DNA of 64,000 nucleotides from a virus (IMGVR_UViG_3300014031_000001:54653-118652); one strand, 5' to 3'; shown: positions 10,502-58,439, numbered from the stretch's first letter. Notes: generated by a model not told the origin, from the letters alone. Made by a program: numbers and translations.

Positions 10502-10509
10502 GGTATAAG
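10502..10509 (+). promoter_or_regulatory. GGTATAAG motif (candidate phage promoter)
   Basis: Exact octamer about 30 nt upstream of the HD nuclease start; one of 8 copies. Confidence 0.65.
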
Positions 10510-10540
10510 TCTTCCGCAATAAACACTGCGGAGGATCCTG

Positions 10541-11554
10541 ATGGGTTTGAAGGCGTTAGTCGCGGGGTCGACCGTGGAGGACCCCCTCGAAGTGCTCGTC
10601 CTAGGCGTGACCGAAGGCATCACAAAAAAGGGCGACCCCTACCTAAAACTGAACCTGCGGGACCTCACGGGGGAGCTTGAAGCTCGCCTGTGGAAGTACG
10701 ACAAAGTGTTGATGGGCTTCATCAAAGTAGGGGTCGTCCTGGCCATCACCGGGCGCGCCGACTCCTATATGGACCAGGTGCAGATGCACCTCGACTCGGT
10801 GACCCTGGTGGACAAAGACCCGATGGTGTTCGCCAAAATGACCCGATTTGACATCGACGTGATGTGGGGCTACGTCGGGGGCGTCATCACCGGCATGACC
10901 GAGCCGCTTACTAAGGCAGTGGCGCGCCAGATCATGACGGGTCACCAGAGCTTCATCGCCGCCTACAAGAAAGCCCCGGCCGCCAAGGCGGTCCACAACG
11001 CCTGGTATGGCGGTCTTTTAGAGCACGTCTACTCGCTGTGCCTTCTGGCGCGGCCGGTCATCGGCCACTACCAGCGCCACTACTGCGACCGCTTCAGCGC
11101 CGACAAGGTCTACTTCGGCCTGCTCCTCCACGACGCCGGCAAGATCATCGAGTACGACGCCAGCAACCCCGCCTTTCCCCTTACGGGCGAAGGCATTTTC
11201 GCCAACCACATGGTGCTCGGGCCGGCCTGGGCCTACGAGAAGGCCAACCTCTGGTGGGCCGAAAACAAGGACGTGATGCCGGTCGCCAAGTTTCGCCTCG
11301 AGCGCGCGCACCTCATGCACGTGCTCGCCGCCCACCACGGCCGCGTCGACTGGGGCAGCCCCGTCGTGCCGGCCTCTCTTGAGGCAATCCTAGTGCACCA
11401 CCTAGACAATTTGGACGCCAAGATGCTGCACGCCATGGACTATGTCGACGGGGCTGAAGGGCCGACGGCGGGCTTTAGCGAGAAGAGCTGGATCGAGCGT
11501 GCTTGCTACTATCAGTACCCAGACTGTAAAGTCGATAGTGGCAAAGACGGGTAG
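10541..11554 (+). CDS. YhaM/Cbf1-like OB-fold + HD-domain 3'-5' exonuclease
   Basis: 'TKKGDPYLKLNLRDLTGELEARLW' OB-fold, 'PAAKAVHNAWYGGLLEH', 'LLHDAGK', 'AHHG', 'EAILVHHLDNLDA'. Confidence 0.88.
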   Translation: MGLKALVAGSTVEDPLEVLVLGVTEGITKKGDPYLKLNLRDLTGELEARLWKYDKVLMGFIKVGVVLAITGRADSYMDQVQMHLDSVTLVDKDPMVFAKMTRFDIDVMWGYVGGVITGMTEPLTKAVARQIMTGHQSFIAAYKKAPAAKAVHNAWYGGLLEHVYSLCLLARPVIGHYQRHYCDRFSADKVYFGLLLHDAGKIIEYDASNPAFPLTGEGIFANHMVLGPAWAYEKANLWWAENKDVMPVAKFRLERAHLMHVLAAHHGRVDWGSPVVPASLEAILVHHLDNLDAKMLHAMDYVDGAEGPTAGFSEKSWIERACYYQYPDCKVDSGKDG

Positions 11555-11587
11555 ATCAACCTGGCACTGCCGGAAAAAGACGTGGAG

Positions 11588-11622
11588 GGCGCGGCCTAGG
11601 TCGCGCCTTTCGTTTTTTTTTC
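11588..11622 (+). terminator. Intrinsic terminator
   Basis: ggcgcggcc-ta-ggtcgcgcc followed by a long T tract. Confidence 0.65.
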
Positions 11623-11657
11623 TTGCGCGCTATAGTCTCTTTCCCCGGAGGAACACA

Positions 11658-12083
11658 ATGACGCGCCTGAACTTGCCGAAGATGAAAGTCCGCCGCCGCG
11701 GCTCGACCGTCTACTCGGAGGCTGTCGTCGACACGACGCCCCAGCTTCTCACCGACAAGATGCGCAGCTTCGAGGGGGCCTGCCTGCAGATACCGGCGAC
11801 GGTCCCGGCCCACGCCGCCCTCACCCTGCGCGCTCTGTTCGACTGCTTTACGAAGGCGGGCACCGTCCGCGAGGGCCTACTCGGTGACATCGTCTACGGC
11901 TTTGCCGCCGCCGGGCACACGCCGCTTGCGACCATGCAAGGTCTCTTTGCGCTCGAGACGGCCGGCTACCTGCGCTTTCAAGCCGCCGACGGCGCCTTCG
12001 TCCACCCCGAAAGCGACCAGATCGGCCGCGCCTGGGTGCGCTACCAGCCGAAACTCCACGCCCTGCTTTACGTAAAGGCCTGA
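11658..12083 (+). CDS. Hypothetical protein (possible winged helix)
   Basis: ATG 11658 with RBS ggagg; 141 aa. Confidence 0.55.
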   Translation: MTRLNLPKMKVRRRGSTVYSEAVVDTTPQLLTDKMRSFEGACLQIPATVPAHAALTLRALFDCFTKAGTVREGLLGDIVYGFAAAGHTPLATMQGLFALETAGYLRFQAADGAFVHPESDQIGRAWVRYQPKLHALLYVKA

Positions 12084-13432: not shown

Positions 13433-13440
13433 GGTATAAG
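13433..13440 (+). promoter_or_regulatory. GGTATAAG motif
   Basis: Intergenic, about 40 nt upstream of small ORF 13480. Confidence 0.65.
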
Positions 13441-13479
13441 ACTGTTGGATAAAGTTGACAACCTATAGGGAGGTCCGAC

Positions 13480-13677
13480 GTGGAGCAGCCTGCCAGCATA
13501 CGCAAAGCTTTTCGTCTTGTGGAAAACTTCGACTACCGCGCGGACCTCGCCAAGAGGGAGGGCCTCGCGGCGGCCGTCACCTGTCTTGGCCTTCTCGTGG
13601 CGCTCGTCGGGGTGGCGAAGATCGTCAAGGCCCGACAGAAACCTAAACCGCGCGCCAAGCTGCGCGTCGTGGCTTAA
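13480..13677 (+). CDS. Small single-pass membrane protein
   Basis: GTG start with RBS gggagg; hydrophobic helix 'AAAVTCLGLLVALVGVA' then a basic tail. Confidence 0.6.
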   Translation: MEQPASIRKAFRLVENFDYRADLAKREGLAAAVTCLGLLVALVGVAKIVKARQKPKPRAKLRVVA

Positions 13678-13684
13678 CCAGGTA

Positions 13685-13712
13685 GCCCGGCCACAGGGCC
13701 GGGTTTCTTTTT
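13685..13712 (+). terminator. Intrinsic terminator
   Basis: gcccggcc-acag-ggccgggt followed by ttctttttt. Confidence 0.7.
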
Positions 13713-13722: not shown

Positions 13723-13730
13723 GGTATAAG
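13723..13730 (+). promoter_or_regulatory. GGTATAAG motif
   Basis: Directly after a terminator, about 38 nt upstream of the DNA polymerase ATG. Confidence 0.7.
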
Positions 13731-13767
13731 TAATTCGGTATGCACTACACACCGGAGGACGCAGCCC

Positions 13768-15627
13768 ATGAGCTGGAACTATATCACCACGCAAGGTGAA
13801 GTTGAGGCACTTCTGCCCCGACTCATGGAGAAGCCGTCCTGGGGGTTTGACACCGAAACGACCGGCCTTGATTCACACGTCGACAAGGTGCTGACGATTC
13901 AGCTCGGGCGCCCCGAAGAGCAGTTCATCATCGACGCGCGTAAGGTCGATGTCTCGCCGCTACGCCCCTTCTTCGAGTCATCGATCAAGAAGATCGCCCA
14001 CAATGGCAAGTTCGACTACAAGATGATGAAGGGCAGCTTCGGCATCGACGTCGAGAGCATCCGCTGCACCTATCTTGGCGAGAAGGCTCTGCACGTCGGG
14101 CGCCGCTTTGCCGGCTTTGATCTCGGCAGCATCATCCAAAACCGCCTCGGCATCACCGTCGACAAGGCCCTGCAAAAGTCCTTCATCGGCCACAAGGGCG
14201 AGTTCTCAAGAGAGCAGCTCGCGTACGCCGCGGCCGACGTCTCCCATCTTCTGCCGCTTTCCTTGAGCCAGTGCACCGAGATGATCGCCGACGGCATCGG
14301 CCCCACCTGGGTGCTCGAGTGCGAGGCCTTGCCGTGCTTTGGCGACATGGAGTTCGCCGGCGTCCTTCTAGACCAAGACCACTGGAAGGAGCTTATCGCC
14401 AGCAACGAAGCCGAGGCCGCGCGCCTGCGCCAAGAGATGGACGAGTACGCGCGTCACTTTTTCCCCGTCAATCTTTTCGGAGACGTCGAGATCAACTACG
14501 ACTCGCCGCCGCAGATCCTTTCGCTCCTACAGCGCATGGGGGTGCAGGTAAACGAGATGGATTTCAAAACGGGAAAGGGGTTTCAAAAGCTCGTCTACAA
14601 GACCGACGACAAGACGCTTAAAAAGGTAAAGGACACGCCTTTCATCAAGCTTCTGAAGGCCTATCGTGGATACCAAATTCGTATCAACACTTTTGGCTAC
14701 CCCTTCCTCAAAGCGGTCCACCCGGTAACGGGGCGCATCCACCCGTCGATTCGCCAGTACGGCACCGAGACCGGACGGCCCGCCGCCGCCAAGGACAAGG
14801 GCTCGGTCAACATGCTGAACATCCCGCGTGAAAACGCTTTCCGGAAAGGGTTTATTGCCCCTGACGACTACGTTGTCGAGACCGACGACTACAGCGGTTG
14901 CGAGCTGCGCATCCTCGCCGAACGCTCGCGCGACCCCGGCCTGATCGAGGCCTTCGCCAACGGCATCGACGTACACTGCTACGTCGCCAGCCGGCTCTTT
15001 GGCGTGGAAGTGACTAAAACAAATGAGAATAAAGGGCTGCGCACGCCGACCAAGCCGCTCAACTTCGGCATCGCCTACGGCATGGGCATCAGCTCCCTCT
15101 ACGAAAGAATCAACGCCGAGGGCTACCCCATCACGCTCGACGACACGGCGAAGCTCTACCGCCGCTACTGCGACGTCGAGTTCAAGGTGGCCGTCAACCA
15201 CCTGCGCGACACTGGCAAACTGGCCGTCGAGCAGGGCTACCTGGCCAACGCCAACGGGCGGCGGCGCTACTGGATGCCGCCTAACGCGCGCGATCGCGAC
15301 AAGTACCCCAACGGGGAGCGCGACCCGCGCTACCGCGGTGCCGTCGGCAAGCTCGAGCGCGAAGGCGGCAACTTCGACATCCAGTCGGTCAACGCCGACA
15401 TGACAAAGGCGGCGATGGCGTCGATCCGCGCCTACAAGAAAAAGCACAAGGTCCGCACCGAATTCGCCAACCAGGTCTACGACGAAATCGTGACCATGAC
15501 CCACAAGGGCGACACAGAGGCCTTCCACCCCATAAAGCAAAAACTGATGATCGAAGCCGCTGCGCGCTGGCTCAAGGTCGTGCCGATGGAGGTCGACGGG
15601 CACGTCGGCCCCGCCTGGCAAAAATAA
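13768..15627 (+). CDS. polA: Family A DNA polymerase (3'-5' exonuclease + polymerase, no 5' nuclease)
   Basis: Exo I DTETTG, Exo II HNGKFD, Exo III YAAADV; motif A DYSGCELRILA, motif B RTPTKPLNFGIAYG, motif C QVYDEI. ATG 13768 with RBS ggagg. Confidence 0.93.
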   Translation: MSWNYITTQGEVEALLPRLMEKPSWGFDTETTGLDSHVDKVLTIQLGRPEEQFIIDARKVDVSPLRPFFESSIKKIAHNGKFDYKMMKGSFGIDVESIRCTYLGEKALHVGRRFAGFDLGSIIQNRLGITVDKALQKSFIGHKGEFSREQLAYAAADVSHLLPLSLSQCTEMIADGIGPTWVLECEALPCFGDMEFAGVLLDQDHWKELIASNEAEAARLRQEMDEYARHFFPVNLFGDVEINYDSPPQILSLLQRMGVQVNEMDFKTGKGFQKLVYKTDDKTLKKVKDTPFIKLLKAYRGYQIRINTFGYPFLKAVHPVTGRIHPSIRQYGTETGRPAAAKDKGSVNMLNIPRENAFRKGFIAPDDYVVETDDYSGCELRILAERSRDPGLIEAFANGIDVHCYVASRLFGVEVTKTNENKGLRTPTKPLNFGIAYGMGISSLYERINAEGYPITLDDTAKLYRRYCDVEFKVAVNHLRDTGKLAVEQGYLANANGRRRYWMPPNARDRDKYPNGERDPRYRGAVGKLEREGGNFDIQSVNADMTKAAMASIRAYKKKHKVRTEFANQVYDEIVTMTHKGDTEAFHPIKQKLMIEAAARWLKVVPMEVDGHVGPAWQK

Positions 15628-16774: not shown

Positions 16775-16782
16775 GGTATAAG
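16775..16782 (+). promoter_or_regulatory. GGTATAAG motif
   Basis: Intergenic, followed by a hairpin and ORF 16836. Confidence 0.6.
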
Positions 16783-16835
16783 TATCCTGCAGGCGCCGCT
16801 CACTTTCGAGCGGCGCCTTCTTTATTGGGGGCGCG

Positions 16836-17027
16836 ATGGTTCCAGACTTCCTTTTCTTGTGGCTCATCCACAGCCTCTTTTGGTTCGTGCTCAGCGTGCT
16901 GGCGGCCGTCCTACGCGGCGGCTATAACGCTATGCGTCCGCGCAGCGCCGTCGCCATGGCGCTGGCGTCGACAGCCCTTCAGACCCTATCGCTCGTCTAC
17001 ATCAGAATGCATTGGAGGCTCTTATGA
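16836..17027 (+). CDS. Small two-TM membrane protein
   Basis: Hydrophobic 63 aa; stop overlaps the next start (ATGA). Confidence 0.5.
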   Translation: MVPDFLFLWLIHSLFWFVLSVLAAVLRGGYNAMRPRSAVAMALASTALQTLSLVYIRMHWRLL

Positions 17028-17803
17028 CCGCCGTTTCTTATGACTTTCCCGTGGCCCTGGAACCGGTCTTCACCAGCAAGGGTAAAAGTATCGCCAACTC
17101 GCGCGCCGTTGTGCGCACCGACACGGGCGAGGCGTTGTCGGTCGTCAGCGACCGCTACAGCATCATCCGCCACGACACGGTGCTGAAGGCCGCCGATGCC
17201 TTCGTCAGCCACTTCGGCGCCCCCGAGGTGCGCCACCACCTGACCGGCAACGGCGCCAACCTGGTGGCCGAGTACTCGTTTAAAGACCAGCAGGCCGACG
17301 CCGGCGTCAACGACACGGTAGGGCTCGTCGTCTACATCCGCAACGCCTACCGGCCGGGCGTGTCCGCGCAGGTGCGCGTCGGCGCCCTCGTCTTGGCCTG
17401 CAAAAACGGCATGGTGATCCCGCGCACCGTCTTTAACCTGTCCGTGCGCCACACCGGTAACGTCCAAGACGTCCGCTTCCCCGAGCCTGACCAAGTCATG
17501 ACGGCCTTCCGCGAGCAGTCGGCCGGCTGGAGGACGCTGGGCAGGATCCAACTTTTAAAGGACACGGGTTACGACTTCCTTGCCGAGGGCGGCCCACTTA
17601 GAGACGCTCTGCCCGCCGCGACGGCCCGCGAGGCCTACGCTATGTGGCTCGACAACTACGACAAGGACCAGAACACCGCCTGGCACATGATGCAGCACAT
17701 CACCAACCTTGTGACGCATCGGCCAGGGAGGCTCTCTTACCTCGGGCAGCTTGCCCGCCTTGAGCGGGTCGTCGGCACGTTCAATAAACACTTCGTGGAC
17801 TGA
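17024..17803 (+). CDS. DUF932-like phage protein
   Basis: 'AVVRTDTGEALSVVSDRYSII' and 'LACKNGMV' motifs typical of the family. Confidence 0.7.
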   Translation: MTAVSYDFPVALEPVFTSKGKSIANSRAVVRTDTGEALSVVSDRYSIIRHDTVLKAADAFVSHFGAPEVRHHLTGNGANLVAEYSFKDQQADAGVNDTVGLVVYIRNAYRPGVSAQVRVGALVLACKNGMVIPRTVFNLSVRHTGNVQDVRFPEPDQVMTAFREQSAGWRTLGRIQLLKDTGYDFLAEGGPLRDALPAATAREAYAMWLDNYDKDQNTAWHMMQHITNLVTHRPGRLSYLGQLARLERVVGTFNKHFVD

Positions 17804-17811
17804 GGCTTTTC

Positions 17812-18462
17812 ATGCAACCAACCATGGCGCTGGCCCCCGCAGCGCCGGCGCCGGATCCGGCCTACATCATCGAAAACAGAAAGCGCCTCCTGGCACTCGA
17901 CTGCCGCGAGGCGCTTCGCTACGTGCGGGTGCTGAGCGGGGTGGCCTCGATCACCAACGGGCTCGTCCTTCTGCGCGCCCCTCTCGACATCCCCAACGGC
18001 CTCTACACCTACACCGACTCCAACCAGCTGCGGCCCGAGCGCGCTGGCTGGATGAGCTACCCCGACATCGAAGTCATGGCACCCCCTTTTGCCCGCATGC
18101 AGCCCTACTGCGAGATCCTAAACACCCCGGAAATGCCCACACTCGGCAGCATGATCCCTTGGGTGGAGCGCGCCCGCGAGCTCAACGGCACCATCGTTTT
18201 CGCAAAGGACGGGGCCTACTTTCAGCAGCACCCCGACTTCTGCTTCAACTTCCCCTTCAACGTGCGCGACGAGATCGTCGTGTCGGCGCACTATCTGCGG
18301 CTGGTTCTTGGCGAAATGTTGCGGTACGATCGCATTTATCTTTCCAGAGAAGAAAACCGCTTCGACAAGATCACACCCCTGGTGTTTGGCAAAAGCTGGG
18401 CCGAGTGCGCACTGCTCATGCCGCAAGACTCCGCCGGTTACGGACTAGGCACCAGGTGGTAA
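17812..18462 (+). CDS. Divergent sliding-clamp (beta-clamp)-like protein
   Basis: 'SYPDIEVMAP' resembles the DnaN YPxYxxVIP motif. The C-terminal 'VSAHYLRLVL...TPLVF...ALLMP' resembles the last DnaN domain. Confidence 0.4.
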   Translation: MQPTMALAPAAPAPDPAYIIENRKRLLALDCREALRYVRVLSGVASITNGLVLLRAPLDIPNGLYTYTDSNQLRPERAGWMSYPDIEVMAPPFARMQPYCEILNTPEMPTLGSMIPWVERARELNGTIVFAKDGAYFQQHPDFCFNFPFNVRDEIVVSAHYLRLVLGEMLRYDRIYLSREENRFDKITPLVFGKSWAECALLMPQDSAGYGLGTRW

Positions 18463-18495
18463 AAGAGGGCTGCCATCGACACTTCGTTCGACAAG

Positions 18496-19356
18496 ATGTT
18501 CTACCAGGAGGGTGAGCGCCTTGGCGGCGTCGACGAATCAGGGGTCAGCGACATCGCTGGCCCGCTGATCGCGGCCTGTGTAATTTTACCTCGCATCGAC
18601 ATGCAGCGAGACGACCTCAGGATCTTCAACGTCGACGACTGCAAGAAGATCCCTGAGAAGTACAGAAAGCAGCACGCCGAGGTTATCTTGCAGACGGCGA
18701 CGGCCTTCGGTATCGGCGAGGTGAGTCCCGCCGAGGTCGACTACCTCGGCAAGCCCAACGCCTCGCGGCTGGCGATGATGCGCTCGATCCTGGCGTGTAA
18801 GACTGTGGCACGCAGCAAGCCCATGCGCCCCGACTTCCTCATTGTCGATGGCGAGAACCCCGTCCAGGTGTCGATCCGCCAGCGCGTCGTTCAAGACGGC
18901 GACCAAAAGAGCCTTTGTGTGGCCGCCGCCAGCATCATCGCCAAGGTCTACCGCGACGACATCATGGCCGAGCTCCACAAGCGCTACCCCCAGTACGACT
19001 GGATCAGCAACAAGGGCTACCCCTGCGAAAACCACTTTCGCGGGATGGACCGGCACGGTATTCAGATTGGCATACACCGCATACGTTTTTGGCCCTTCAC
19101 GCCCTCGACGATGCGCGCCGAAGACGACCCCGGCGCTATCGTGCGCTGGGACAGGCGCCGCAAGAAGTGGCGCCAGGCGACGGAACAAACCCTCGGACAG
19201 GAACTAGGAGAGCAGCTTTGGACGTCAAAGCCTCCATTGTGGAAGCCCTCGGTCAGCTCCAAAGCCTCACCGCTCCAGGGAGTGACGACTACCAGGAGCT
19301 CGAGCGCCAAAAGGCCGCCATCCACGGAGAAACCGATGAGCGGAGGCTCTTTATGA
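18496..19356 (+). CDS. rnhB: Ribonuclease HII-like protein
   Basis: 'GVDESG...AGP', 'LIVDG', 'GDQKSLCVAAASIIAKVYRD', 'NKGY'. Confidence 0.88.
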   Translation: MFYQEGERLGGVDESGVSDIAGPLIAACVILPRIDMQRDDLRIFNVDDCKKIPEKYRKQHAEVILQTATAFGIGEVSPAEVDYLGKPNASRLAMMRSILACKTVARSKPMRPDFLIVDGENPVQVSIRQRVVQDGDQKSLCVAAASIIAKVYRDDIMAELHKRYPQYDWISNKGYPCENHFRGMDRHGIQIGIHRIRFWPFTPSTMRAEDDPGAIVRWDRRRKKWRQATEQTLGQELGEQLWTSKPPLWKPSVSSKASPLQGVTTTRSSSAKRPPSTEKPMSGGSL

Positions 19357-21702: not shown

Positions 21703-24700
21703 CTAGTACATCGGCCCGCCCTCGATCTGGGTGTAGCGCCGCGACTTGCCGTGGAAGATGTCGGCCGCGAGCTTGCAAAAGAGCAAGCTGTGGAAAAAGT
21801 CATCAGGGTCCGAGGGCCGGTGGTCAAATTTAATCTCCCGGCGGAACTCGTTGTACTCCGTGTAGATCGACAAAATGTCCTTGGCATACGGCTCGAACTC
21901 TGCCCACTTCGGAAAACCGACGTGGCCGTTTTTCATGTCGTAGAAGAGCTCCGACATGAAAAGGTTGCGGTGCAAGTGGTAGCGCGTGCCGAGCGCGTCC
22001 CACTTGATGCGGTTTTTCAGCTTGTGCAGATACTGAAACTGCATGACGCGCTTCGGACCAAGCTTGCGCACGAGCACGTTGTTGAGGCCCCAGCCGTGGC
22101 CGTAGTCGACCCCGAGCACACGCACGCCTAGTCCGGCCGAGATGCGGCAGATGTCGTTGACGACGTGCTCGGGGTCAACCTCGCGGCCGACGTACTTCTT
22201 CACGAGCACGGTGCGAAACTTCCGCTGCGTCTCGTAGTAGCCGAGCGTGAGCACCGTGTAGGAGGCGTTACGGATCTTGCCGCTCGGGCTCTTCTCTGAG
22301 CCGTCGTTGCCCTCGCCCCAGTCGACGCCCCCGATCAGCACGCGGCTGCGCGCGTCGGCCAGATAAGGCGTCAGGTTGTTGGGGTCCCAGAGGGCGTAGT
22401 CGCCGCAGATCCCCATCAGCGCCGCTCGGCTAATCGGCTTTGACGCGGCGTCGTAGGAAAGCCCAAGCACCTCATTGGCGAACTGCCCGAAGGGGTAGTG
22501 GTCTCTCTTCCAAAGCAGCCGCGACCACTGCGACATGGTCGAGATGATCCAGGGCACCATGAGCTGCGGGATGCGGTAGCCGGCGATGGCCTTGCCGCCC
22601 GACAGCGACATCCACTGGCCTTTCGTCACGTCAAGCGGGCGCACGCACTTGGAGCAGACGGGGCCGGGCGGCAGGCGCCCCGACTCGTACCACTGCGTCG
22701 GCCCGATCGTCGTCTCGTCGAGCATGTTCCAGTGGCCGCAGCCGCATGGGACGAGCCACTCGTTTTGCGTCGAGCTCTGCCAGTAGATCTCGATCGGGTT
22801 GTCGAGGCTCTTTGGCGTCCCCGCCATGATCTCGATGGCGTCAGGAAAGTGCGACGTGCACTCGCGGATGACCGGGATCTCCGAGATGAGCATGTCCTGG
22901 AACTCGTCGAGCGCCAGCACGCGCGCCGAGATCCCGCGCGCTCTGTCGGCGCTGCGAAAGGCCGAACGCAGGAAGATGAAGGCGCCGTTGGTGAAGCCCT
23001 TCTCGAAGACCTGGTTACTGACGCCGGAGTCCTGCAGGTACTTCATGATCAGCGGCGACTTCTCGATCGCCGGCTTCAGCTTCTCGGACGAAAACTGCCG
23101 CGTCTGCGTGTGCGACGGCGACACGTAGAGGCACTTGTTGAAGGGCTTGACGGCGCTGATGGCGACGAGGTTGTTTGCGAGGAATGTTGTGTTGTGGTTG
23201 AGGATGAAGTCCGCGACAAAGGTCTCGGTCTCGGTCTGGATGCCCCAGGTGGGCTGCATGCCGAGGTCTTCGATGGTGACTATCTCGTCCCAGATGACGT
23301 CGGACTCAAGAATCGCCGCCAACGCGCCGCTCTCAAGCTCGACGTTCATCGCTGCGACTTTTTCATAGGTCGGGCAGTAGCTGCGGTTCACCCGCAATCC
23401 GGCCGACTGAAAGCCGTTGCGCTGCCAGTAAGTGCCGCGATCTTTTCTGGCCTGCAGAATGAACTCGTGGATTTCTTTTGGGAGGGTGTCGAGGTTGCTG
23501 TTGGCACGGCACGTCGACAGGGTGAAGGGCTTACCTGGAATAGGACCGAGCTCGCGGTGGAAACACGCAACAGCACGCCGCGTGATGACGCGAATATTGT
23601 AGGCGAGGCGGCCGCCGTTGCTTAGTTTGTTTTCGCGCTGGACCGTGACCACCCCAAACTTGCGCAAGAGGAGCCGCACCTGCCGCGCCAGCACCGGGCT
23701 CGTCGTGCAGTAGACGAGGTCTACTTTGGAGCTCGAAACATTTTTGCAGTGGCCGTCGGTGGCCCATAGGCCACGAAGAAGATCCCGCGTCGTCTCTTTG
23801 TCCCAACCAAAGACCTCGGCCGGGAGGTGCTTCTCGCGGGCGCAGGTGTTGGCGATGCCGCGGTCGCGAAACCAGACGGCAAGTGGCCCCTTTAGGCTAA
23901 ACGCGTAGCGCTTCGTGCCCGACCGCTCGTCGATCCAGGTGCGCGAGGGGCGGTCACCGGCGAGCTCGAGCAGACGGTCGGCCCAGGCGTTGACCTCGTC
24001 GCCCTTTTGCGTGAACCCGAAACTACTGCCGCCCGCCTTGTGCCGGTAGTAGTGGCCATCGCCCACCAGCAGCCCGAGAAGGGCCGCCCAGGAGAGGCGC
24101 GCCGTGCCGAAGGTCCCGACCGTGCGCAGGGCGGCGACGCGGTCTCCAGGCACCAGCCTGCCCGCCTCAACCCAGCCATCAAAGCGACGCAGTGGGTGAT
24201 TGAGGGTCACCTCGAGCGTCGACCCAAGCCGCGTCCTTAGGCGCACGCATCGCCGCGGCCCGTTGTCCTCGGAGGCGACGACGGTGTCGACCGCCTGGTG
24301 GCCGGCCGCATCGATGGCGATGACAGTGTCGCCGACGGTCATCTGGTCGATGGGCTTTTCGGAGCCATCCGACAAGGTGCACTGGCTAGACGCGACTAAA
24401 CATTTTTCGACCTGCCTGGCCGTCTTCAAGAGGATGCGCTGATCGGAGCGGTCGTAGATCGGCTCGAGGTAGCGGCGCCCCGTGAAGTCGAACTTCTTGC
24501 CGTCGAGATGGATCAGGTTGTGGACGAAGGCCGACTTGCGCGCGCGGATCAGTTTGCGCACCGTGCCGTCGTCGTTGAAGAGCTCGTTGATGCGGGCGGC
24601 GTGAAGAGCCGACGGCAGCTGCAGATCCTTCTCGTCGGTGTAGTCGTCGGCGTCGCGACCCTCGAGCTCGGCGAGCTCGTCGGGATCTAAATGGTCAGTG

Positions 24701-24732
24701 ATGACCATGCTGTTCACATTAGAGTCAGTCAA
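21703..24732 (-). CDS. terL: Terminase large subunit with intein
   Basis: Spliced Walker A 'LKTARQVEK|TT', 'RARGISARVLALDEFQD' Walker B, 'AGTP' coupling motif, 'GVDWG' nuclease, 'PDDFFHS'. Confidence 0.9.
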   Translation of the reverse strand: MTDSNVNSMVITDHLDPDELAELEGRDADDYTDEKDLQLPSALHAARINELFNDDGTVRKLIRARKSAFVHNLIHLDGKKFDFTGRRYLEPIYDRSDQRILLKTARQVEKCLVASSQCTLSDGSEKPIDQMTVGDTVIAIDAAGHQAVDTVVASEDNGPRRCVRLRTRLGSTLEVTLNHPLRRFDGWVEAGRLVPGDRVAALRTVGTFGTARLSWAALLGLLVGDGHYYRHKAGGSSFGFTQKGDEVNAWADRLLELAGDRPSRTWIDERSGTKRYAFSLKGPLAVWFRDRGIANTCAREKHLPAEVFGWDKETTRDLLRGLWATDGHCKNVSSSKVDLVYCTTSPVLARQVRLLLRKFGVVTVQRENKLSNGGRLAYNIRVITRRAVACFHRELGPIPGKPFTLSTCRANSNLDTLPKEIHEFILQARKDRGTYWQRNGFQSAGLRVNRSYCPTYEKVAAMNVELESGALAAILESDVIWDEIVTIEDLGMQPTWGIQTETETFVADFILNHNTTFLANNLVAISAVKPFNKCLYVSPSHTQTRQFSSEKLKPAIEKSPLIMKYLQDSGVSNQVFEKGFTNGAFIFLRSAFRSADRARGISARVLALDEFQDMLISEIPVIRECTSHFPDAIEIMAGTPKSLDNPIEIYWQSSTQNEWLVPCGCGHWNMLDETTIGPTQWYESGRLPPGPVCSKCVRPLDVTKGQWMSLSGGKAIAGYRIPQLMVPWIISTMSQWSRLLWKRDHYPFGQFANEVLGLSYDAASKPISRAALMGICGDYALWDPNNLTPYLADARSRVLIGGVDWGEGNDGSEKSPSGKIRNASYTVLTLGYYETQRKFRTVLVKKYVGREVDPEHVVNDICRISAGLGVRVLGVDYGHGWGLNNVLVRKLGPKRVMQFQYLHKLKNRIKWDALGTRYHLHRNLFMSELFYDMKNGHVGFPKWAEFEPYAKDILSIYTEYNEFRREIKFDHRPSDPDDFFHSLLFCKLAADIFHGKSRRYTQIEGGPMY
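23191..24402 (-). mobile_element. Intein (404 aa) with LAGLIDADG endonuclease in the terminase P-loop
   Basis: Starts CLVASSQC, TLNHP block B, LLGLLVGDG and LLRGLWATDG, ends ILNHN, +1 Thr. Confidence 0.92.
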
Positions 24733-24736
24733 GGTT

Positions 24737-25211
24737 TGTCACCACTTCGACTGGTGACAAACGCAGGCGCGCAACATGGCAACACTGCTGACTTAATCAA
24801 GAAGTATACAGGGGCTGTCACCAAGAGGCGGTTTCGACCGGTGACAGCCAAACCCTTGCAGCCCAAGGGGTTGGCCGATTTGTCACCGATGTCACCGGTA
24901 TTTTCGCCCGTAAGAGAACTTCCTGGGGATGACATATGTGGGACGAGGCCCCTATGTGTACGTGTGAGTATCCTGTGTGAAATCCCACGGGAGGTCTTAT
25001 CCTGTATATACGTGGTGACACCGGTGACAAGGATGACAGTCTATATATAACCCCTTGTTTTTCTGAGCCTATTTTGGCCAAAATTTGTCACCACTTTTAC
25101 TTATCCCCAGGTGACAAGCGGTGACAGAAAACTTGTCCACAGACTTAGAAAGCTTGAAGCGCGGTCACGGCGCCCAGTTCAGAGCGATTGCGGTTAGCTA
25201 GGTTTGTCACC
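24737..25211. repeat. Array of 12 TGTCACC/GGTGACA heptamers in both orientations (iteron-like; candidate origin or pac site)
   Basis: Copies at 24737, 24753, 24816, 24840, 24881, 24890, 25014, 25023, 25086, 25110, 25120, 25205, plus two GATGACA variants, in a low-GC intergenic gap. Confidence 0.8.
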
Positions 25212-25221
25212 AGCAACTAAA

Positions 25222-42913: not shown

Positions 42914-43069
42914 GTGATCGAACTAGAGGAAATCGCTTTGAAAATCATACTAACGCCTAACGACATTGTAGCACAACGAAAACCAGGGCTTGAGCAGGGA
43001 GGCGACGATCGTGGAGCAGCAAAACCAGGTGCCACCAAGCCGCGCGCAAAGTGCCGTCCAAGTCCGTAA
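42914..43069 (+). CDS. Small hypothetical protein (51 aa)
   Basis: GTG with strong RBS gaggagg; below the ORF-track length cutoff. Confidence 0.4.
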   Translation: MIELEEIALKIILTPNDIVAQRKPGLEQGGDDRGAAKPGATKPRAKCRPSP

Positions 43070-43693: not shown

Positions 43694-43714
43694 GCGGGGC
43701 ATCGTCTTTTTTTT
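43672..43714. terminator. Bidirectional intrinsic terminator
   Basis: aaagacgatgccccgc-atgtag-gcggggcatcgtcttt followed by a T tract. Confidence 0.8.
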
Positions 43715-44266: not shown

Positions 44267-44454
44267 GTCACCACCAAGTAGATGAATTCCGTGGAGCCGA
44301 CGATCTGGCCTTCGTTGTAGTCGCGTTCGACTTTCTTTATCTGGCGCTCGGTGATGATCGTGCACAGCGGGTTGTTCAAGATCGCCTGGTAGTCGGCCAG
44401 GTTATTGTCGTCCAGCAGGTCGAAGCGCCCCACGTGGCGGCGGCTCTTGTACAT
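44242..44454 (-). CDS. Hypothetical small protein
   Basis: 70 aa, coupled to the portal stop codon. Confidence 0.6.
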   Translation of the reverse strand: MYKSRRHVGRFDLLDDNNLADYQAILNNPLCTIITERQIKKVERDYNEGQIVGSTEFIYLVVTWEERTLL

Positions 44455-47400
44455 CAGCTGGCCCCGGTCATGGGCCGCGCGCCGACCATCTCCATGCGCT
44501 GGGCGCCGACGCGCCCCTGCGGCATGGCGTCCATGTTGGGGGCCGTACTGACGCCGCCGCTGCCCCCCATCTCGGCCATCTTCATCTTATAGAGCCGCTC
44601 GAGCTGCTGGCCGACGTCGGGCATCTTCACCTTGATGTCGGTGATCGTGAGGTTGGCCTGGCCAGGGTCCATCTTGATCAGCTGGCTCGTCCAGCGCTCA
44701 AGCCGCTGCTGGACCATGTCGGGCTGGGGCGGGCCCTTGCCGCCCGCCGCGGGGGCGCCAGGGGCGGGCGGGCCGCCGGCGCCGCCCTGGGCGGCCTGCT
44801 GGACGTTGCCAGGCATCCCGCCCGGGTCCTGGCCTTGGCCGCCACCGGGGGCGCCGGCGTCAGGGGTCGCGCCTGGGAGGGGCTGGCCGTCAGGGCCGAC
44901 CTGGCCCTGCTGGAACATCTCGGGGGTCGCCTCGCCCTTGGCGATCATCTGCTGCATCTTCTTTTGGGCGGAGATCTGCGCCTTCTGCGCGAGCTCCTGG
45001 ACTTTCGACTGGTAGTTGAACTGCACGAGCGAGGCCTCGCCCTGGGCCTTGGCGGCGCCCTTCGTCTGCAGGTCGGAGATGTAGTTTTGGATGAAGAGCT
45101 CTTCGATCTTTTTCTTGGTCTCCTGCTCGTAGTCGAAGCCAAGCTCCGTGAGCATCGTGTGGTCCGAGAGCTTGCCGGAGGCGTTGAGGCCGACGACCTG
45201 CTGGTTCCTCTGGACGTCGTCGGCCATCCGGAAGTCGGCAAAGCGCACGCGCTTCACGTCAGGGATGTCGAGCCACACGCGGATCTTTTCTTTGATCCAA
45301 AAGACCAGGTCTAGAAGCTGGCTGCGGTTTTGGATGAAGTCGTTTTCCAAGGTACGCAGCGAGATCGAGGACCCCGTGTTGTGCGAGATGATCCCGTTGG
45401 CAACGTAGCTGTGGGTGTTGAAGACCGTGAGGTCGCACATCTCGACTTCTTCGTCAGAGAAGGTGACCTCCTCGATCTGATCCCACCAGTGGTCGGCCTT
45501 CTTGGCCTCCGCGACCCGGTCGTAAAGTACAGGGTCTAGGGCCTTGACGCCCTCCCAGTTCACAAGCTCGTAGTTGTTGTCTGTCAGCTCCCAGGTCGTC
45601 TGACCGAGGGCAGCGCGCTTTTGCGTGCCGTAGTTTTCTAGGAAGGCTTCCAGCGCGGGCTTCGTGATGAGCCAGCTCGGGTAGCGCCCGTCGTTTCGAG
45701 CTTCCTTCTCGGCGACGAGCTTGCCCTTACGGATGTAGAGGATGACGCTAGAGACGTCTCGGTCCAGGATGTCGGCGACTTCCGCAGTCGTGTAGAGGTC
45801 TTTTTGCAGGTCGTGCTGGCGATGCTCTTTGATCCATGCGCCGAAGCCGTTTTGCAGCTTGCGTAGGGCCTTCAGGTTGTCCATGACGTAGGGGATCTTG
45901 TTGGCTTCGCAGCGAAAGCCTTGACGATCCGCGACTTCACGGTAAAGCCGGTTTTTACGCTCTGTGGTAAAGCCGATCTCCTTCATGAAGAGGCTGACGT
46001 ACTCGGAGCGAATTTGCAGCGAGTGGGTGTTGTTGTTCAGGCCGCTGAAGCTTTCAGCGCACTCGCCGGTGTAGGGCGGGTAGCGCGTCGACAAGATGCC
46101 GAAGTTCATCAAGAGGAGCTGGACTTCCTCGATCAGCCGCTCGGACACCGAGTTGTAGTGGATCGTCTGTTTTTTATCGCGGTCGACGATGCACCCGTCA
46201 CCGCTAAAAAGCGCGCTGAGGAACGCGGCGACGGACGCCTTGGTGCCTTCGCGGATGAGGCGCGGCACGCGCTTGGTATGGGAGTAGTGCTGCATGTCGA
46301 GCGTCTTGAGCTCAGCCGTGACGGCGGAGTCGCGGCACTGGACCTGCGCGTAGGGGTGGTTGCCGCCGCTCTCCGAGAAGTCGCGCCACTGCAGCGCGGG
46401 CCGCTTGCCGAAAGTCCCCTCAAAGCAGTCGAGGTAGTCCTCAAGAATTGCCTTGTCGGTGTTACCGAAGTCGGTACATTTTTCAGTGACCGAGCCCTCT
46501 GCCACGAGGTAGCCGAGCAGTCGGCACAGATTCGGGTTTACAGCCCGGTCGCCCCAGAGGCCAGTCTGCTTTTTGAGCGCGACGTACTCGCCCGGCTTGA
46601 AGTTCTGCAGCGCCTTCCAGCCCATTTCAACTTCGCCGTCGATGGTCCAAACTTTGTGGACCGGTGAGCCGGTCAGCGTCAGACCCGAGCGCATCTTGAT
46701 CTTGACCTGCTTGCGCTTCGCGGTGTGGTGCGTCAGCGCAACACGCTCCACGCCATCCTTCGTCAAGACAGAAAAATCAGCCTCCGCGATTCCGGGCTCT
46801 TCCGGGCAGAGTTCCTCGAGGCGAAGAAGGCCCTTCGATGTCATGCAAAGCGTTGATTTTATTGAGCAAAAGTTCAAACCGCCGAAAAGAAATTCTTGTG
46901 GAATTCCCATTCCCCCAACAATCGTTTGCGTCAGGTAGTTGAGCTCGGGGGACAGCAGCAGCGCCTTGCCGTCACCGCCGATGCGGCCAAAGCCCACCGG
47001 AATCGGGATGACCGCCTTGAAGTTGGGGTCGGCCCGGTGGCGCGTGATGATGTCTTCGATCTTGACCTTCCAGTCGGCCAGGTCGGTGTGGATGTAGGGG
47101 TCCTGCTGCGCGTTCGGCATCGGGTAGATGATGTCGAAGGGGACGATGTGCTCAAGTGCGATCGCCTCCTGGGCGCGGCGCAGCGTGTAGAAGTAGAACA
47201 TGTCTTTTAGCACGTGGATGATCGTCGGCTTGCCCCAGCCCTGGTCTTGCTCGGCCAAGGTCGGGTTCTTCAGGTGCTTGATCGCGCGGTCGTCGAGGCG
47301 AATGAGTCGGCGCTTTTTGAGCGCATCCAGGACGACCAGCGGGATGTCTTCCAGCACGTCCTTGTCGCCGCGCTGGATCATCGAGCGCAGCTTACCAGGC

Positions 47401-48023
47401 ACCGAGTACATGTAAATGTAGCGGCCCGTGTAGTCATTGAACTTGATGTGGATGTTCTCGGGGTTCCAGCGAATCAAGCGGATCGACTTGCGGTCTTTGT
47501 AGGGCACGTCTTTGACGTCGACGGCGCCGCGCTTATTGCACTCGGCGCAGACGCCCGTGAAATGGTAGTCGCCGCCGTTGAAGCTCCAGTCCCACTGACG
47601 AATAGGCTGGCGGTACTTGCAGCCCTGGCAGATCAGAAAGCGCGTGAACGGCAGGTGGATCGAGACGAAGGCGTTGCCGTAGACGTGGTAGTCGAGGTTC
47701 ACCTCCATCAAGCGGTCTTTGAGCTTGAGCTCGTCGACCAAGATGGTGCGCCAGACGTCGCGCACGCTGTCGAGCTCGTCTTCGAAGATGAGGTCGGTGA
47801 TCGGGTAGCGACTGATCTTCTTGATCGAGCTGCCAATGAGTGGGCTGTTGTAGAAGTAGAACGTGCACCAGCGGAAGAGCTCTTTGATCGTCGGCGGCAT
47901 GTACTGCTGCGACAAATCGAAGAACTGGTTGGGATAGCGCGTCCCGCGGCCGCCGCCCCCAATCGAGATGTTGGGGTTGACGCTGCGTGTCTGCGACGAG
48001 CCGCTGATGTCAAGGTTGGTCAT
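44454..48023 (-). CDS. Portal protein with intein, Zn-ribbon insertion and Gln/Gly/Pro-rich tail
   Basis: 'EVNLDYHVYGNAFV', 'IRWNPENI', 'HLK...GWGKPTI', 'GMGIPQEFLFGG' are portal-like. CQGC...CAEC insertion. Confidence 0.75.
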   Translation of the reverse strand: MTNLDISGSSQTRSVNPNISIGGGGRGTRYPNQFFDLSQQYMPPTIKELFRWCTFYFYNSPLIGSSIKKISRYPITDLIFEDELDSVRDVWRTILVDELKLKDRLMEVNLDYHVYGNAFVSIHLPFTRFLICQGCKYRQPIRQWDWSFNGGDYHFTGVCAECNKRGAVDVKDVPYKDRKSIRLIRWNPENIHIKFNDYTGRYIYMYSVPGKLRSMIQRGDKDVLEDIPLVVLDALKKRRLIRLDDRAIKHLKNPTLAEQDQGWGKPTIIHVLKDMFYFYTLRRAQEAIALEHIVPFDIIYPMPNAQQDPYIHTDLADWKVKIEDIITRHRADPNFKAVIPIPVGFGRIGGDGKALLLSPELNYLTQTIVGGMGIPQEFLFGGLNFCSIKSTLCMTSKGLLRLEELCPEEPGIAEADFSVLTKDGVERVALTHHTAKRKQVKIKMRSGLTLTGSPVHKVWTIDGEVEMGWKALQNFKPGEYVALKKQTGLWGDRAVNPNLCRLLGYLVAEGSVTEKCTDFGNTDKAILEDYLDCFEGTFGKRPALQWRDFSESGGNHPYAQVQCRDSAVTAELKTLDMQHYSHTKRVPRLIREGTKASVAAFLSALFSGDGCIVDRDKKQTIHYNSVSERLIEEVQLLLMNFGILSTRYPPYTGECAESFSGLNNNTHSLQIRSEYVSLFMKEIGFTTERKNRLYREVADRQGFRCEANKIPYVMDNLKALRKLQNGFGAWIKEHRQHDLQKDLYTTAEVADILDRDVSSVILYIRKGKLVAEKEARNDGRYPSWLITKPALEAFLENYGTQKRAALGQTTWELTDNNYELVNWEGVKALDPVLYDRVAEAKKADHWWDQIEEVTFSDEEVEMCDLTVFNTHSYVANGIISHNTGSSISLRTLENDFIQNRSQLLDLVFWIKEKIRVWLDIPDVKRVRFADFRMADDVQRNQQVVGLNASGKLSDHTMLTELGFDYEQETKKKIEELFIQNYISDLQTKGAAKAQGEASLVQFNYQSKVQELAQKAQISAQKKMQQMIAKGEATPEMFQQGQVGPDGQPLPGATPDAGAPGGGQGQDPGGMPGNVQQAAQGGAGGPPAPGAPAAGGKGPPQPDMVQQRLERWTSQLIKMDPGQANLTITDIKVKMPDVGQQLERLYKMKMAEMGGSGGVSTAPNMDAMPQGRVGAQRMEMVGARPMTGAS
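45378..46868 (-). mobile_element. Intein (497 aa) with LAGLIDADG endonuclease and an extra HTH domain
   Basis: Starts CSIKSTLC, SPVHKV block B, LLGYLVAEG and LSALFSGDG, ends IISHN, +1 Thr. Confidence 0.9.
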
Positions 48024-56176: not shown

Positions 56177-56193
56177 CGGTAGCTACCTTGTGA

Positions 56194-56571
56194 TTACGAG
56201 GCTTTGATTTTCAGCTCGCCGACCCGCACGATAAGCTCGCCGGTGTCGGCGCCGAGGCCCACCTTCAAGATGAAACCCGCCGTCGGCGGCAGCTCCGCGC
56301 CATAGCCGTCAGCCTGAAGAAAGTACGGTGCTCCCGGAGTGATCCCCGTGAGCCCCGGAAGTTTTCCATCGGTTAGGACTAAGATTCTAGCACCGGAAGC
56401 GGCCGCTCTAAAAGCCGCTCCGATTACGTGCCGCGTCGCGTGCTCCGACGAGCGCGCGATGGCGACCGTCCGCGGTCCGGACACATAAAGGTACTGGCCT
56501 TTTTCGACGGCCTCGCCGGCCGTGTAGGGGATGATCGTGCCGAGCCCGTAGCGCGGGGCGATGCTAGGCAT
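56194..56571 (-). CDS. Capsid cement/fibre-anchor-like protein
   Basis: 'AGEAVEKGQYLYVSG...PGAPYFL' resembles the C-terminal domain of the 765-aa fibre. Confidence 0.5.
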   Translation of the reverse strand: MPSIAPRYGLGTIIPYTAGEAVEKGQYLYVSGPRTVAIARSSEHATRHVIGAAFRAAASGARILVLTDGKLPGLTGITPGAPYFLQADGYGAELPPTAGFILKVGLGADTGELIVRVGELKIKAS

Positions 56572-57346
56572 TTTTGATGTACTCCCGGACCTCGCTCAGG
56601 CGCGCGATCTGGATGGCCAATGCCTCGTCGCCCGGGGGCGCGCTCTTGGGCCAGCAGCGCTCAACCCGAGCGAGAAGCGCCATGTTGTTGCCAAGCTTGT
56701 TCAAAAACCCCTGACAGGCCGGTGGAAACATCGGCGCCGGCAGGTAGACGACGCCGCCGGTCATGGCACAGGCGGCGATGTAGGCGGCCACCTCGGGCTC
56801 GTAGCCCTGACGCGGTCGCACCGTCGCCAGCACCTTTAGCGCCAAGGCGACGTCGTGCAGCTCGTGGGGCTGCAGCTGGTCGAAGTCGACGACGCTAAAG
56901 TTGAACGCGTGGGCCACTTTTTCGAAGACATGCCAGTGCTCAAAAGGAGCGTTGGTCTTTACGGTGACCTGAAGCGCCCCGAGCACGTTGGCCACCTGGG
57001 GCGTCACGTCGATGTCGTGGTCAGCGTGCAACGTTGCCGCCAGCGTCTCCGGCTCCCAGTCCCACCAGGCCTGCCCGTGGTCGCGGTTAAGCAGCTCGAA
57101 GAGGGCCAAGACGGAAAGCCCAGCATGCTTTTCCGGCTCTGCCATGAGGCCCCTGACGGCGGCGCCGACGATCTGCTTGGCGATGTAGCGGGGCGCCGTC
57201 GCCGCGCTAGACAGGTTCTTCACGGCCTTGACGGCGCGACCGATCGTCTGCGCCGTCTCGACCGGATTCACCGGCTCTTCGGGTTGTACTCCTTCGCCTG
57301 CCATCTTCTGCAGGAACTCGAAGGAGGCATCGTCAATACGTGTCAT
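56564..57346 (-). CDS. Virion protein with F..FxxKxA leader variant
   Basis: Start reassigned to ATG 57346: MTRIDDASFEFLQKMA; internal EKHA. Confidence 0.55.
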   Translation of the reverse strand: MTRIDDASFEFLQKMAGEGVQPEEPVNPVETAQTIGRAVKAVKNLSSAATAPRYIAKQIVGAAVRGLMAEPEKHAGLSVLALFELLNRDHGQAWWDWEPETLAATLHADHDIDVTPQVANVLGALQVTVKTNAPFEHWHVFEKVAHAFNFSVVDFDQLQPHELHDVALALKVLATVRPRQGYEPEVAAYIAACAMTGGVVYLPAPMFPPACQGFLNKLGNNMALLARVERCWPKSAPPGDEALAIQIARLSEVREYIKNA

Positions 57347-58415
57347 CCGCGAAGCCAACCATAATTTCTTTGGCGTCCATGGGGAGCGAGTCGAAGATGG
57401 CGACTGGGTCTTTCTGGAGGCACTGTAGCATCGAGGAGCCGAAGTACTCTTTGATCTTGTCGGCCTTGGCGCCGACAAGCTTCGCAAGCGCCTCGGGGTT
57501 TAGCGTCTTGCCGGCGACCTTTGCGCGCCAGCCGGCGTACTGGTCGGGCTCGAGTGCGAACGTCGCGACGAAGGGGTTGGTCAGGTAGCCGTCGTAGTAG
57601 CGGTCGAGCTTGGCCTTCTTGTCAAAGGCGTAGAGCAGCTGGGCGAACTCGGCCGGCACGAGCTCTTTTTTGAGGCTGCCGATCTTCTCGAGCGCGGCGT
57701 TGAGCCGCGGGTCGGCCACCTCGAGAAGGGACGCCCGCGCGCGGATGTGGGCGTCGACCTGGGGGCTGTAGTGGTCGCTCGCGTACTTGGCGACGGTGCC
57801 CTTCTGGGGGCCCATGCCGAGCTCGTGCGCCCGCCGCTGGATCGCCGCGGCGTACTTAAAGCGCCCGTCAGCCGGCATCTTGCTGTGCTGCTGGTCGAAG
57901 TACTGGCAGGCGATCTTCACATGGCCAGGCGTCGAAAACGCGTACTGAGCGAACGTGTAGTTGTCGCCGATCTTCTCGGCCTCGGCAAACTCGGAAAGGT
58001 TCACCGTCTTCACCGAGGCCTTCTTCTGCAGGGCGCCGTCTTCTTCGAAGTAGACGTTGGACGAGGCCTCTTTGGCGAGCCCCGTCACCGAGGTCTTGGG
58101 CGCGATGCCGAAGCGATCGCAGGCCTGCTTGATGTTATAGGCGGCGACCGACGCGGCCTTTTCCGGCAGGCGGTTGTGGAACATGTCGAAGTACTCGTTG
58201 GAGAGCCACGTGTTGTCGGGGCTGTCGACCGGGTACTTGTTGAGCTTATGGGCCTTCTTCGTGATGACCGACAGCGCGAAGTCGGTGTCACAGAGGGCAG
58301 TTTTTTCGGCGTCGCTCATCACGTAGACCGACGGGTTGGCACGGGCCAATTTCTTGATCCCGACCTTACCGACATCGTCGTAGGCGTCGATCACTTGGTT
58401 CGCAAGCCGAAGCAT
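57333..58415 (-). CDS. Virion head protein with KxA motifs
   Basis: 360 aa. KKLA, EKTA, EKAA, AKEA, QKKA, AKYA. RBS aggagagg. Confidence 0.55.
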   Translation of the reverse strand: MLRLANQVIDAYDDVGKVGIKKLARANPSVYVMSDAEKTALCDTDFALSVITKKAHKLNKYPVDSPDNTWLSNEYFDMFHNRLPEKAASVAAYNIKQACDRFGIAPKTSVTGLAKEASSNVYFEEDGALQKKASVKTVNLSEFAEAEKIGDNYTFAQYAFSTPGHVKIACQYFDQQHSKMPADGRFKYAAAIQRRAHELGMGPQKGTVAKYASDHYSPQVDAHIRARASLLEVADPRLNAALEKIGSLKKELVPAEFAQLLYAFDKKAKLDRYYDGYLTNPFVATFALEPDQYAGWRAKVAGKTLNPEALAKLVGAKADKIKEYFGSSMLQCLQKDPVAIFDSLPMDAKEIMVGFADDTY

Positions 58416-58431
58416 TTGCCTCTCCTAAGTG

Positions 58432-58439
58432 GGTATAAG
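58432..58439 (+). promoter_or_regulatory. GGTATAAG motif
   Basis: About 46 nt upstream of small ORF 58486. Confidence 0.65.

Follow-up and report, generated by a model that had tools for sequence, protein, structure and literature searches.

Phage-specific promoters that serve phage-encoded transcription machinery have been described in several forms. The late promoters of phage T4 carry a single invariant 8-bp element (TATAAATA) at -10, with no -35 hexamer, which is read by the sigma-family protein gp55 together with gp33 and the clamp, and which serves one gene class of a large phage. Phages phiEco32 (gp36) and SPO1 (gp28) have sigma-70-family factors with a phage-only promoter consensus centred on -10, and phages of the phiKZ/AR9 type carry a beta/beta'-type RNA polymerase of their own and short phage-specific promoter motifs (PMC7598289, PMC5312081, PMC9209446). 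Here we describe an octamer, GGTATAAG, that recurs in a 64,000-nucleotide (nt) stretch of viral DNA ("the window"), which is the right-hand 64 kb of the 118,652-bp IMG/VR viral contig IMGVR_UViG_3300014031_000001 (62.5% G+C content, GC; 81% complete by CheckV). The octamer is an element of this known kind: as judged from sequence, it is probably read by a phage-encoded sigma factor, itself probably acting on a fused beta-beta' polymerase of the phage, at the head of non-structural genes.

The predicted likeness to T4 extends to a sigma-family reader and to the restriction to one gene class, but T4 uses the host core enzyme and has no polymerase genes, gp55 comprises region 2 only whereas the sigma factor predicted here spans regions 2-4, the T4 promoters serve the late structural class rather than replication and other non-structural genes, and the sequences differ. 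Neither phiEco32 nor SPO1 has a core polymerase of its own, and their consensus sequences are unrelated to the octamer. In phages of the phiKZ/AR9 type, the enzymes are built of 4-5 polypeptides, in two sets per phage, with no sigma-70-family subunit; the lineage described here has instead one fused (or two-part) beta-beta' polymerase and a sigma-family gene, in genomes of 145-190 kb that are not of jumbo size. A review likewise reports no sigma factor in the phiKZ-type, polymerase-bearing (group 1) jumbo phages that it covers (PMC7824862). The phiKZ/AR9 model has a virion-packaged enzyme transcribe the early genes, a mode that is suggested for the present lineage by the virion proteomics of Salmonella phage Arash. 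In literature searches on the octamer, Arash transcription, the Kleczkowskaviridae and phage polymerases with sigma factors, nothing was found on a GGTATAAG promoter or on the transcription strategy of the lineage. What appears to be new is the combination: a fused core of bacterial type that has a sigma-70-family factor of its own, a box confined to the -10 region with G(-7), and probable delivery in the virion.

Placement and geometry of the octamer

A sequence-only reading of the window had listed eight copies of the octamer, all on the plus strand, had noticed no reverse-complement copy by eye, and had estimated that fewer than one copy per strand would arise by chance. All eight copies are exact and lie on the plus strand, the reverse complement CTTATACC occurs 0 times in the window, and in 100 dinucleotide shuffles the copy number averaged 0.26 and never exceeded 2, compared with the 8 observed. 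Variants with one mismatch show no enrichment over chance in the window (10 besides the exact copies, with 12.3 expected for all hits). Seven copies do lie about 30-55 nt before a start codon, the distance from octamer end to start being 31, 39, 37, 53, 45, 41 and 46 nt.

Across the full contig, which also supplied the training set for the codon-usage caller that predicted its genes, there are 13 copies, 12 on the plus strand and one on the minus strand. The genome-wide scan thus upheld the placement, with all 12 plus-strand copies intergenic, but not strict one-strandedness. The lone minus copy (contig position 24654) and the plus copy at 24738 diverge from each other, and the former has the orientation of the minus-strand gene that it faces, which bears a P22 Ant N-terminal domain. 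The position at gene boundaries that had been claimed for the window holds throughout: 13/13 copies are intergenic in a contig with an intergenic share of about 13%, and 12/13 are co-oriented with the next gene. The only copy that does not face a gene is that at window position 34518, which is followed by no credible open reading frame (ORF) before a terminator. GGTATAAG is the most enriched oriented-upstream 8-mer in the contig, as it also is in the relative G002 and in Arash. The copies have no flanking sequence in common, and an origin as a repeat element was rejected on that ground. The contig has no DNA similarity match among known phages.

The genes behind the boxes are non-structural. 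They encode a protein with OB and HD domains, a family A DNA polymerase, a DUF932 protein, RNase HII, SSB, HU and an RRM protein, while boxes elsewhere in the contig serve genes for a sliding clamp, a PIF1 helicase and a PD-(D/E)XK nuclease. Genes for the capsid, portal, terminase and RNA polymerase lie on the opposite strand, and in the genomes mapped the boxes stand overwhelmingly on the non-structural-gene strand.

Conservation extends beyond the octamer itself. In 8/8 window copies, a pyrimidine followed by G occupies octamer positions +13/+14, after five variable bases, which gives the extended motif GGTATAAG-N5-Y-G. At these two positions T is found in 10/13 and G in 12/13 contig copies, and in 57/72 and 54/72, respectively, of the non-redundant sites of the family. 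From this Y-G conservation we infer a transcription start at the +14 G; with that G as +1, TATAAG falls at -12 to -7, GG at -14/-13 and the pyrimidine at -1, and the predicted geometry is that of a bacterial -10/extended -10 element. The bacterial sigma-70 extended -10 element (TGnTATAAT) shares with it G(-14), TATAA at -12 to -8 and, if the start is correctly predicted, a start 7 nt after the hexamer with a pyrimidine/purine step at -1/+1. The sequence-only reading had seen a resemblance to a -10 box that ends in G instead of T and had found no -35 box, and both observations stand. A(-11) is present and G(-7) occurs in 13/13 contig copies, 31/31 Arash copies and 18/18 copies of a variant in Vibrio phage D181; no -35 hexamer emerges from the aligned copies, which show just a weak A-rich patch 14-20 nt upstream.

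These boxes therefore lack the pairing of A at -11 with T at -7 that marks a host sigma-70 -10 element. T(-7) is near-invariant in promoters of housekeeping sigma factors, and its replacement by G in 44/44 copies argues against a host sigma. Further differences from the bacterial element are G at -13 (T in D181) instead of any base, and an optional T(-15), found in 2/13 contig copies and 18/31 in Arash, beside an invariant G(-14). The site-to-site degeneracy of host promoters is also missing, all copies being exact and intergenic near-cognates few. Three intergenic one-mismatch variants, all on the plus strand, at contig positions 9546 and 15667 (GGTACAAG in both) and 73110 (window 18458; GGTAAAAG), still have T-G at +13/+14 and may represent weaker GGTATAAG-class promoters, including in the left arm.

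Relatives, sigma factor and fused polymerase

Relatives were gathered by polymerase-alignment scans, which gave 48 loci besides G001, a 60-kb IMG/VR contig of 47% GC with a polymerase 60% identical to that of the window. In G001 all seven copies are on the same strand, and among them are those that precede the DNA polymerase and SSB genes and one beside the RNA polymerase start. In 34/34 metagenome loci with a polymerase at least 56% identical (GC 39-65%), the octamer occurs antisense, 6-47 nt upstream of the polymerase start, and in low-GC relatives an antisense copy recurs about 1416 nt into the polymerase gene, where it is no more than the codons for Leu-Ile-Pro. Three distant, near-complete relatives (163-175 kb) have 15/0 (G002), 10/1 (G003) and 10/1 (G004) copies per strand. 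The octamer is retained across polymerases about 32-60% identical and across GC contents of 39-65%, in a widespread lineage of 120-190 kb genomes that comes from freshwater, sediment, digester and marine samples and includes the cultured phages Arash and D181.

Arash, with a 181-kb genome and a polymerase about 33% identical, shares with the window phage the polymerase, portal, terminase, capsid and SNF2 genes, a sigma-like protein (Gp10) and the same octamer, and differs from it in having separate beta and beta' genes and a longer consensus, tGGTATAAGtaaagTGTAa, followed by a ribosome-binding site and ATG. Copies per strand are 30/1, compared with 2/3 for a reversed-pattern control; the 30 are on the non-structural-gene strand, and 29/31 are intergenic and co-oriented. 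The closest ribosome-binding site begins exactly at the predicted +1. The only plus-strand box of Arash (OQ632216.1), at 11588, stands directly before gp9-gp10, the latter being the sigma gene. Another Arash box, at 90609 (-), heads a 287-aa (amino acid) ORF with a sub-threshold Sigma70_r3 match (E 0.098). These two boxes are a hint of sigma autoregulation or of a sigma cascade.

Exact GGTATAAG is at control level in Vibrio phage D181, Carin-5, RHph_TM21B and Yersinia phage GN1. In D181, the top upstream 8-mer is the one-base variant GTTATAAG, found at 17/1 per strand, with 16 copies intergenic and co-oriented; its sites end in the same N5-T-G/A tail, and a gTTnAAc element can be seen upstream of them. 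The polymerases of Carin-5, RHph_TM21B and GN1 are just 23-26% identical. Overall, Y-G at the expected start, with -10 geometry, is conserved in four lineages.

The distribution of the motif follows that of a sigma-like gene. Arash Gp10 matches Sigma70_r3 at 9e-9 and region 2 weakly, and a six-frame search found one Sigma70_r3 ORF (235-299 aa) each in Arash, D181, G002, G003, G004 and G006 but none in Carin-5, RHph_TM21B or GN1. With G005 and G006 left out of the scoring as too incomplete, motif and sigma gene are both present in Arash, D181 (with the variant), G002, G003 and G004, and both absent from Carin-5, RHph_TM21B and GN1; every relative examined that has the sigma gene has a polymerase gene too. 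A profile built from four of the sigma ORFs matches PDB structures of RpoS, SigA and RpoD at about 1e-10 (RpoS/SigA 7e-11) over regions 2-4, and an AlphaFold model of the sigma-like protein (predicted local distance difference test score, pLDDT, 75.6) aligns over 220-250 columns with the sigma subunits of known holoenzyme structures. Virions of Arash contain beta (Gp206), beta' (Gp216) and the 'RpoS-like' Gp10 among their most abundant proteins (PMC10585845); the paper that reports these proteomics does not use the word 'promoter'.

No sigma gene was detected in the 118.6-kb contig by six-frame searches with the Pfam region 2, 3 and 4 families or with Arash Gp10, nor among all called proteins by a family hidden Markov model, phmmer or hhalign. 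Two candidates were rejected: the 215-aa gene after the polymerase is of low complexity and matches no family, and a 224-aa gene past the contig end is not sigma-like. Synteny with G003 predicted a sigma gene past the right end of the contig. An exact-protein look-up led to a longer assembly of the same phage (ENA ERZ27248586 k119_169337; 162,857 bp), whose 11,260-bp overlap with the window shows 100.000% identity. This assembly carries, about 15 kb past the window at L129:3663-4391 (+), a sigma-70-family gene of 242 aa, which explains the negative searches in the contig. The gene has the strand of the virion genes and is flanked by large proteins, with Baseplate_J and lysozyme genes nearby that the 118.6-kb contig likewise lacks; its product matches the sigma-like family of the relatives (hhalign 99.9%, E 2.8e-32) and scores 26.0 bits for Sigma70_r3, with a cut-off of 25.3. 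The extra 19 kb of the longer assembly contain no octamer.

The candidate core enzyme is a bacterial-type RNA polymerase encoded at 35404-42858 (-) as a single chain of 2484 aa, with beta followed by beta' and an intein interrupting the reading frame. The beta' part aligns with residues 159-464 of bacterial beta' with no deletion, a segment that includes the clamp helices on which sigma region 2 docks. One fused ORF, a single set and a sigma-family gene set this phage apart from the phiKZ/AR9 type. A T7-type enzyme is not indicated either: the contig has no PF00940 match, in a search whose control genomes could not show this family, and sequence conservation covers just 8 bp + 2 bp rather than the approximately 23 bp of a T7-type promoter.

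The polymerase start codon has no recognizable Shine-Dalgarno sequence (42859-42872 region); in most of the 34 close relatives, the antisense octamer fills the 6-9 nt before the ATG, and the divergent promoter has its upstream A-rich patch over the first polymerase codons (M-R-N-F-G). Inteins or LAGLIDADG domains interrupt four large minus-strand genes of the virion strand, namely a capsid-region protein (4388-7591), the terminase (21703-24732), the polymerase itself and the portal (44454-48023).

Transcription units and other elements of the window

Several of the units headed by the octamer are closed by good intrinsic terminators, at 32377-32402 and at the positions given below, and boxes are often placed after the terminator of the previous unit. 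The leftmost box in the window (10502-10516, +; predicted start G 10516) heads the gene for the OB-fold and HD-domain protein (10541-11554), with a terminator at 11582-11613. The box at 13433-13447 (+; predicted start G 13447) heads a 65-aa gene (13480-13677), with the end of its unit at a terminator at 13684-13705, and is followed by the box at 13723-13737 (+; predicted start G 13737), which precedes the family A DNA polymerase gene (13768-15627) and the genes after it and occupies the same position in G001. At 16775-16789 (+; predicted start G 16789), a further box heads 16836-19356, encoding the DUF932 protein and RNase HII. A terminator-like hairpin of 11 pairs with a T-rich tail (16791-16818, +) begins 2 nt past this predicted start, and could be a terminator of the upstream unit sited after the next promoter, or an attenuator.

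The box at 31093-31107 (+; predicted start G 31107) heads the SSB gene (31146-31640), followed by the HU-like and RRM-protein genes; it is divergent from a minus-strand gene at 29810-31051, and its position is kept in relatives. The box at 34518 (+; predicted start G 34532) heads a unit of about 190 nt without an ORF (34518-34723), which ends in back-to-back terminators at 34690-34705 (-) and 34706-34723 (+). Similar ORF-less units running from box to terminator are present in relatives L018, L022, L025, L027 and L030. A role as a non-coding RNA was rejected for the 34518 unit, which matches nothing in Rfam, folds with a z-score of -0.63 and has no consensus structure in common with its positional counterparts in relatives.

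Only 6 nt separate the box at 42865-42879 (+; predicted start G 42879) from the polymerase start codon on the opposite strand, an arrangement kept in 34/34 close relatives; the box heads small genes (42914-43693) and their unit closes with a terminator at 43692-43707. The rightmost box (58432-58446, +; predicted start G 58446) heads a 57-aa gene (58486-58659) that lies antisense inside the minus-strand virion block.

Boxes resembling TATACT or TATAAT, which the sequence-only reading had described at minus-strand units, do exist. Oriented upstream regions contain 14 TGnTAnnnT boxes, where 2.7 are expected from genome density, and 5 occur antisense. This canonical-looking second promoter class before minus-strand units is exemplified by the extended -10-like box TGCTACAAT at 42965-42973 (-), 106 nt upstream of the polymerase start codon. 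The structural strands of D181 (17/2) and Arash (11/4) carry cTAAAATA(TAg) boxes, often back-to-back with boxes of the first class; these are rare in the present high-GC phage, with only two co-oriented copies, at window positions around 50045 and 60975 (-). For the minus-strand units of the contig, k-mer enrichment revealed no second strong exact motif, only the degenerate TGnTAnnnT class.

Upstream of the intein-bearing terminase gene, a 504-bp gap (24718-25221) holds many GGTGACA / TGTCACC repeats in both orientations, which could be a packaging or regulator-binding array.

Recognition of the octamer and its implications

The octamer is very probably a promoter element, as suggested by its position and orientation, the terminator-bounded units, the -10 geometry and the deep conservation. 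It is quite improbable that it is instead an oriented site of another nature at operon heads, such as an activator site, an antiterminator loading site or an RNA processing signal. Such a site would fit evidence that consists of position and orientation only, and the box at 16775 directly precedes a terminator-like hairpin; yet the boxes have no other shared promoter-like element beside them, they often follow the terminator of the previous unit, and four lineages keep both the -10 geometry and Y-G where the start is expected. If the octamer is a promoter element, the invariant G(-7), the identity of the motif across hosts of differing composition and the co-occurrence with the sigma gene make a phage-encoded reader likely. 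An ordinary host extended -10 promoter, read by the housekeeping holoenzyme, is very improbable: TATAAG matches TATAAT at 5/6 positions, G(-14) fits an extended -10 element and T(-15) occurs in 18/31 Arash sites, but a housekeeping sigma requires T where every one of the 13/13, 31/31 and 18/18 sites has G, host promoters vary from site to site as these do not, the octamer is identical across GC 39-65%, and the same genomes hold a separate degenerate TGnTAnnnT or TAAAAT class.

The sequence-only reading had named the octamer as the promoter of the phage RNA polymerase for early/middle genes. Promoter function and a phage-encoded reader are strongly supported, because the octamer is invariant, intergenic, gene-oriented and kept across GC 39-65% and polymerases about 32-60% identical; since the motif tracks the phage sigma-70-family gene, it is most likely recognized by that sigma factor and not by the polymerase core. 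We consider it quite improbable that the polymerase reads the box directly or through a non-sigma subunit, as in phiKZ/AR9, with the sigma-like protein employed otherwise. Sigma-less phage multisubunit polymerases do exist (PMC7598289, PMC9209446), and the polymerase gene adjoins a conserved box copy, but the box has precisely the layout of a sigma-type -10 element, G(-14) included, and the polymerase-bearing phages that lack a sigma gene also lack the motif. The identity of the core enzyme is a closer question. Given the rest, a modest preference falls to the phage core, on the basis of gene co-presence, the kept clamp-helix segment and the Arash virion proteomics. The other arrangement, in which the same promoter and phage sigma redirect the host core while the phage polymerase reads another class (for example the TAAAAT-like structural-strand boxes), seems unlikely to us, though it has several points in its favour: the motif follows the sigma gene and not the polymerase gene, the sigma factor has a normal sigma-70-family fold with regions 2-4, the known phage sigmas use the host core, and the NADFNGD loop of the present polymerase is unusual. 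Set against it are the high abundance of beta, beta' and sigma together in purified Arash virions (PMC10585845), the presence of the polymerase in every sigma-bearing relative examined, the retention in phage beta' of the segment that docks sigma region 2, and a motif unchanged across presumably very different hosts (GC 39-65%).

In the mechanism that we propose, as somewhat more likely than not, GGTATAAG would form the -10 region in a class of phage-specific promoters for replication, recombination and small genes. Its reader would be a compact phage sigma-70-family factor comprising regions 2-3-4, to which co-occurrence and homology point, and the invariant G(-7) would set these promoters apart from those of the host. 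The core would be the fused beta-beta' polymerase, the least certain step. By analogy with the Arash virion, this polymerase, encoded on the virion-gene strand, is probably packaged with the sigma factor and injected, in which case the GGTATAAG units would form the first phage-polymerase-dependent class. Their timing could be either 'early', with an injected holoenzyme, or 'middle', if the host first transcribes the polymerase gene from the canonical-looking box. More tentatively, and with somewhat less than even confidence, we extend this to the whole lineage: a self-sufficient holoenzyme of beta-beta' and its own sigma, packaged in the virion, injected and independent of the host polymerase, would transcribe from G-N-TATAAG promoters, G(-7) would be orthogonal to host promoters, and the second, TAAAAT-like class would serve the virion genes.

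Several observations weigh against the proposed mechanism. The case for every member of the system is drawn from sequence. T4 gp55, SPO1 gp28 and phiEco32 gp36 are sigma-family factors that act on the host core, so that a phage core is not required by the data. Three polymerase-bearing phages have neither motif nor sigma gene, and the motif thus tracks sigma rather than polymerase. In the window phage, the catalytic loop reads NADFNGD (38779-38802, -, directly before the intein) instead of the NADFDGD of relatives G001 and G002, and polymerase activity is therefore not assured; the sigma gene lies outside both the window and the 118.6-kb contig; and the plus-strand genes of the left 23 kb of the contig have no exact copy of the octamer. 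As to the start site, the conserved downstream pair of G002 is T-A, one position closer, which means that the spacing is not uniform, and two boxes (contig 30449 and Arash 11588) have an ATG at +12 to +14, a poor fit to a +14 start.

Its conservation across polymerases only about one-third identical and across a 26-point GC range makes the octamer a reliable annotation marker, one by which non-structural transcription units can be recognized across a large group of uncultivated phages. The motif also predicts exact start sites, and cultured phage-host pairs exist in Arash with Salmonella and D181 with Vibrio. If the proposal is true, this would be the first sigma-dependent phage-encoded multisubunit polymerase, and it would provide a compact orthogonal set of core, sigma and promoter, the specificity of which seems to rest on G versus T at -7 plus GG versus GT in D181. 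If the holoenzyme model is true, these phages would have taken a new route to independence from host transcription, through a bacterial-like core with its own sigma factor, possibly delivered in the virion.

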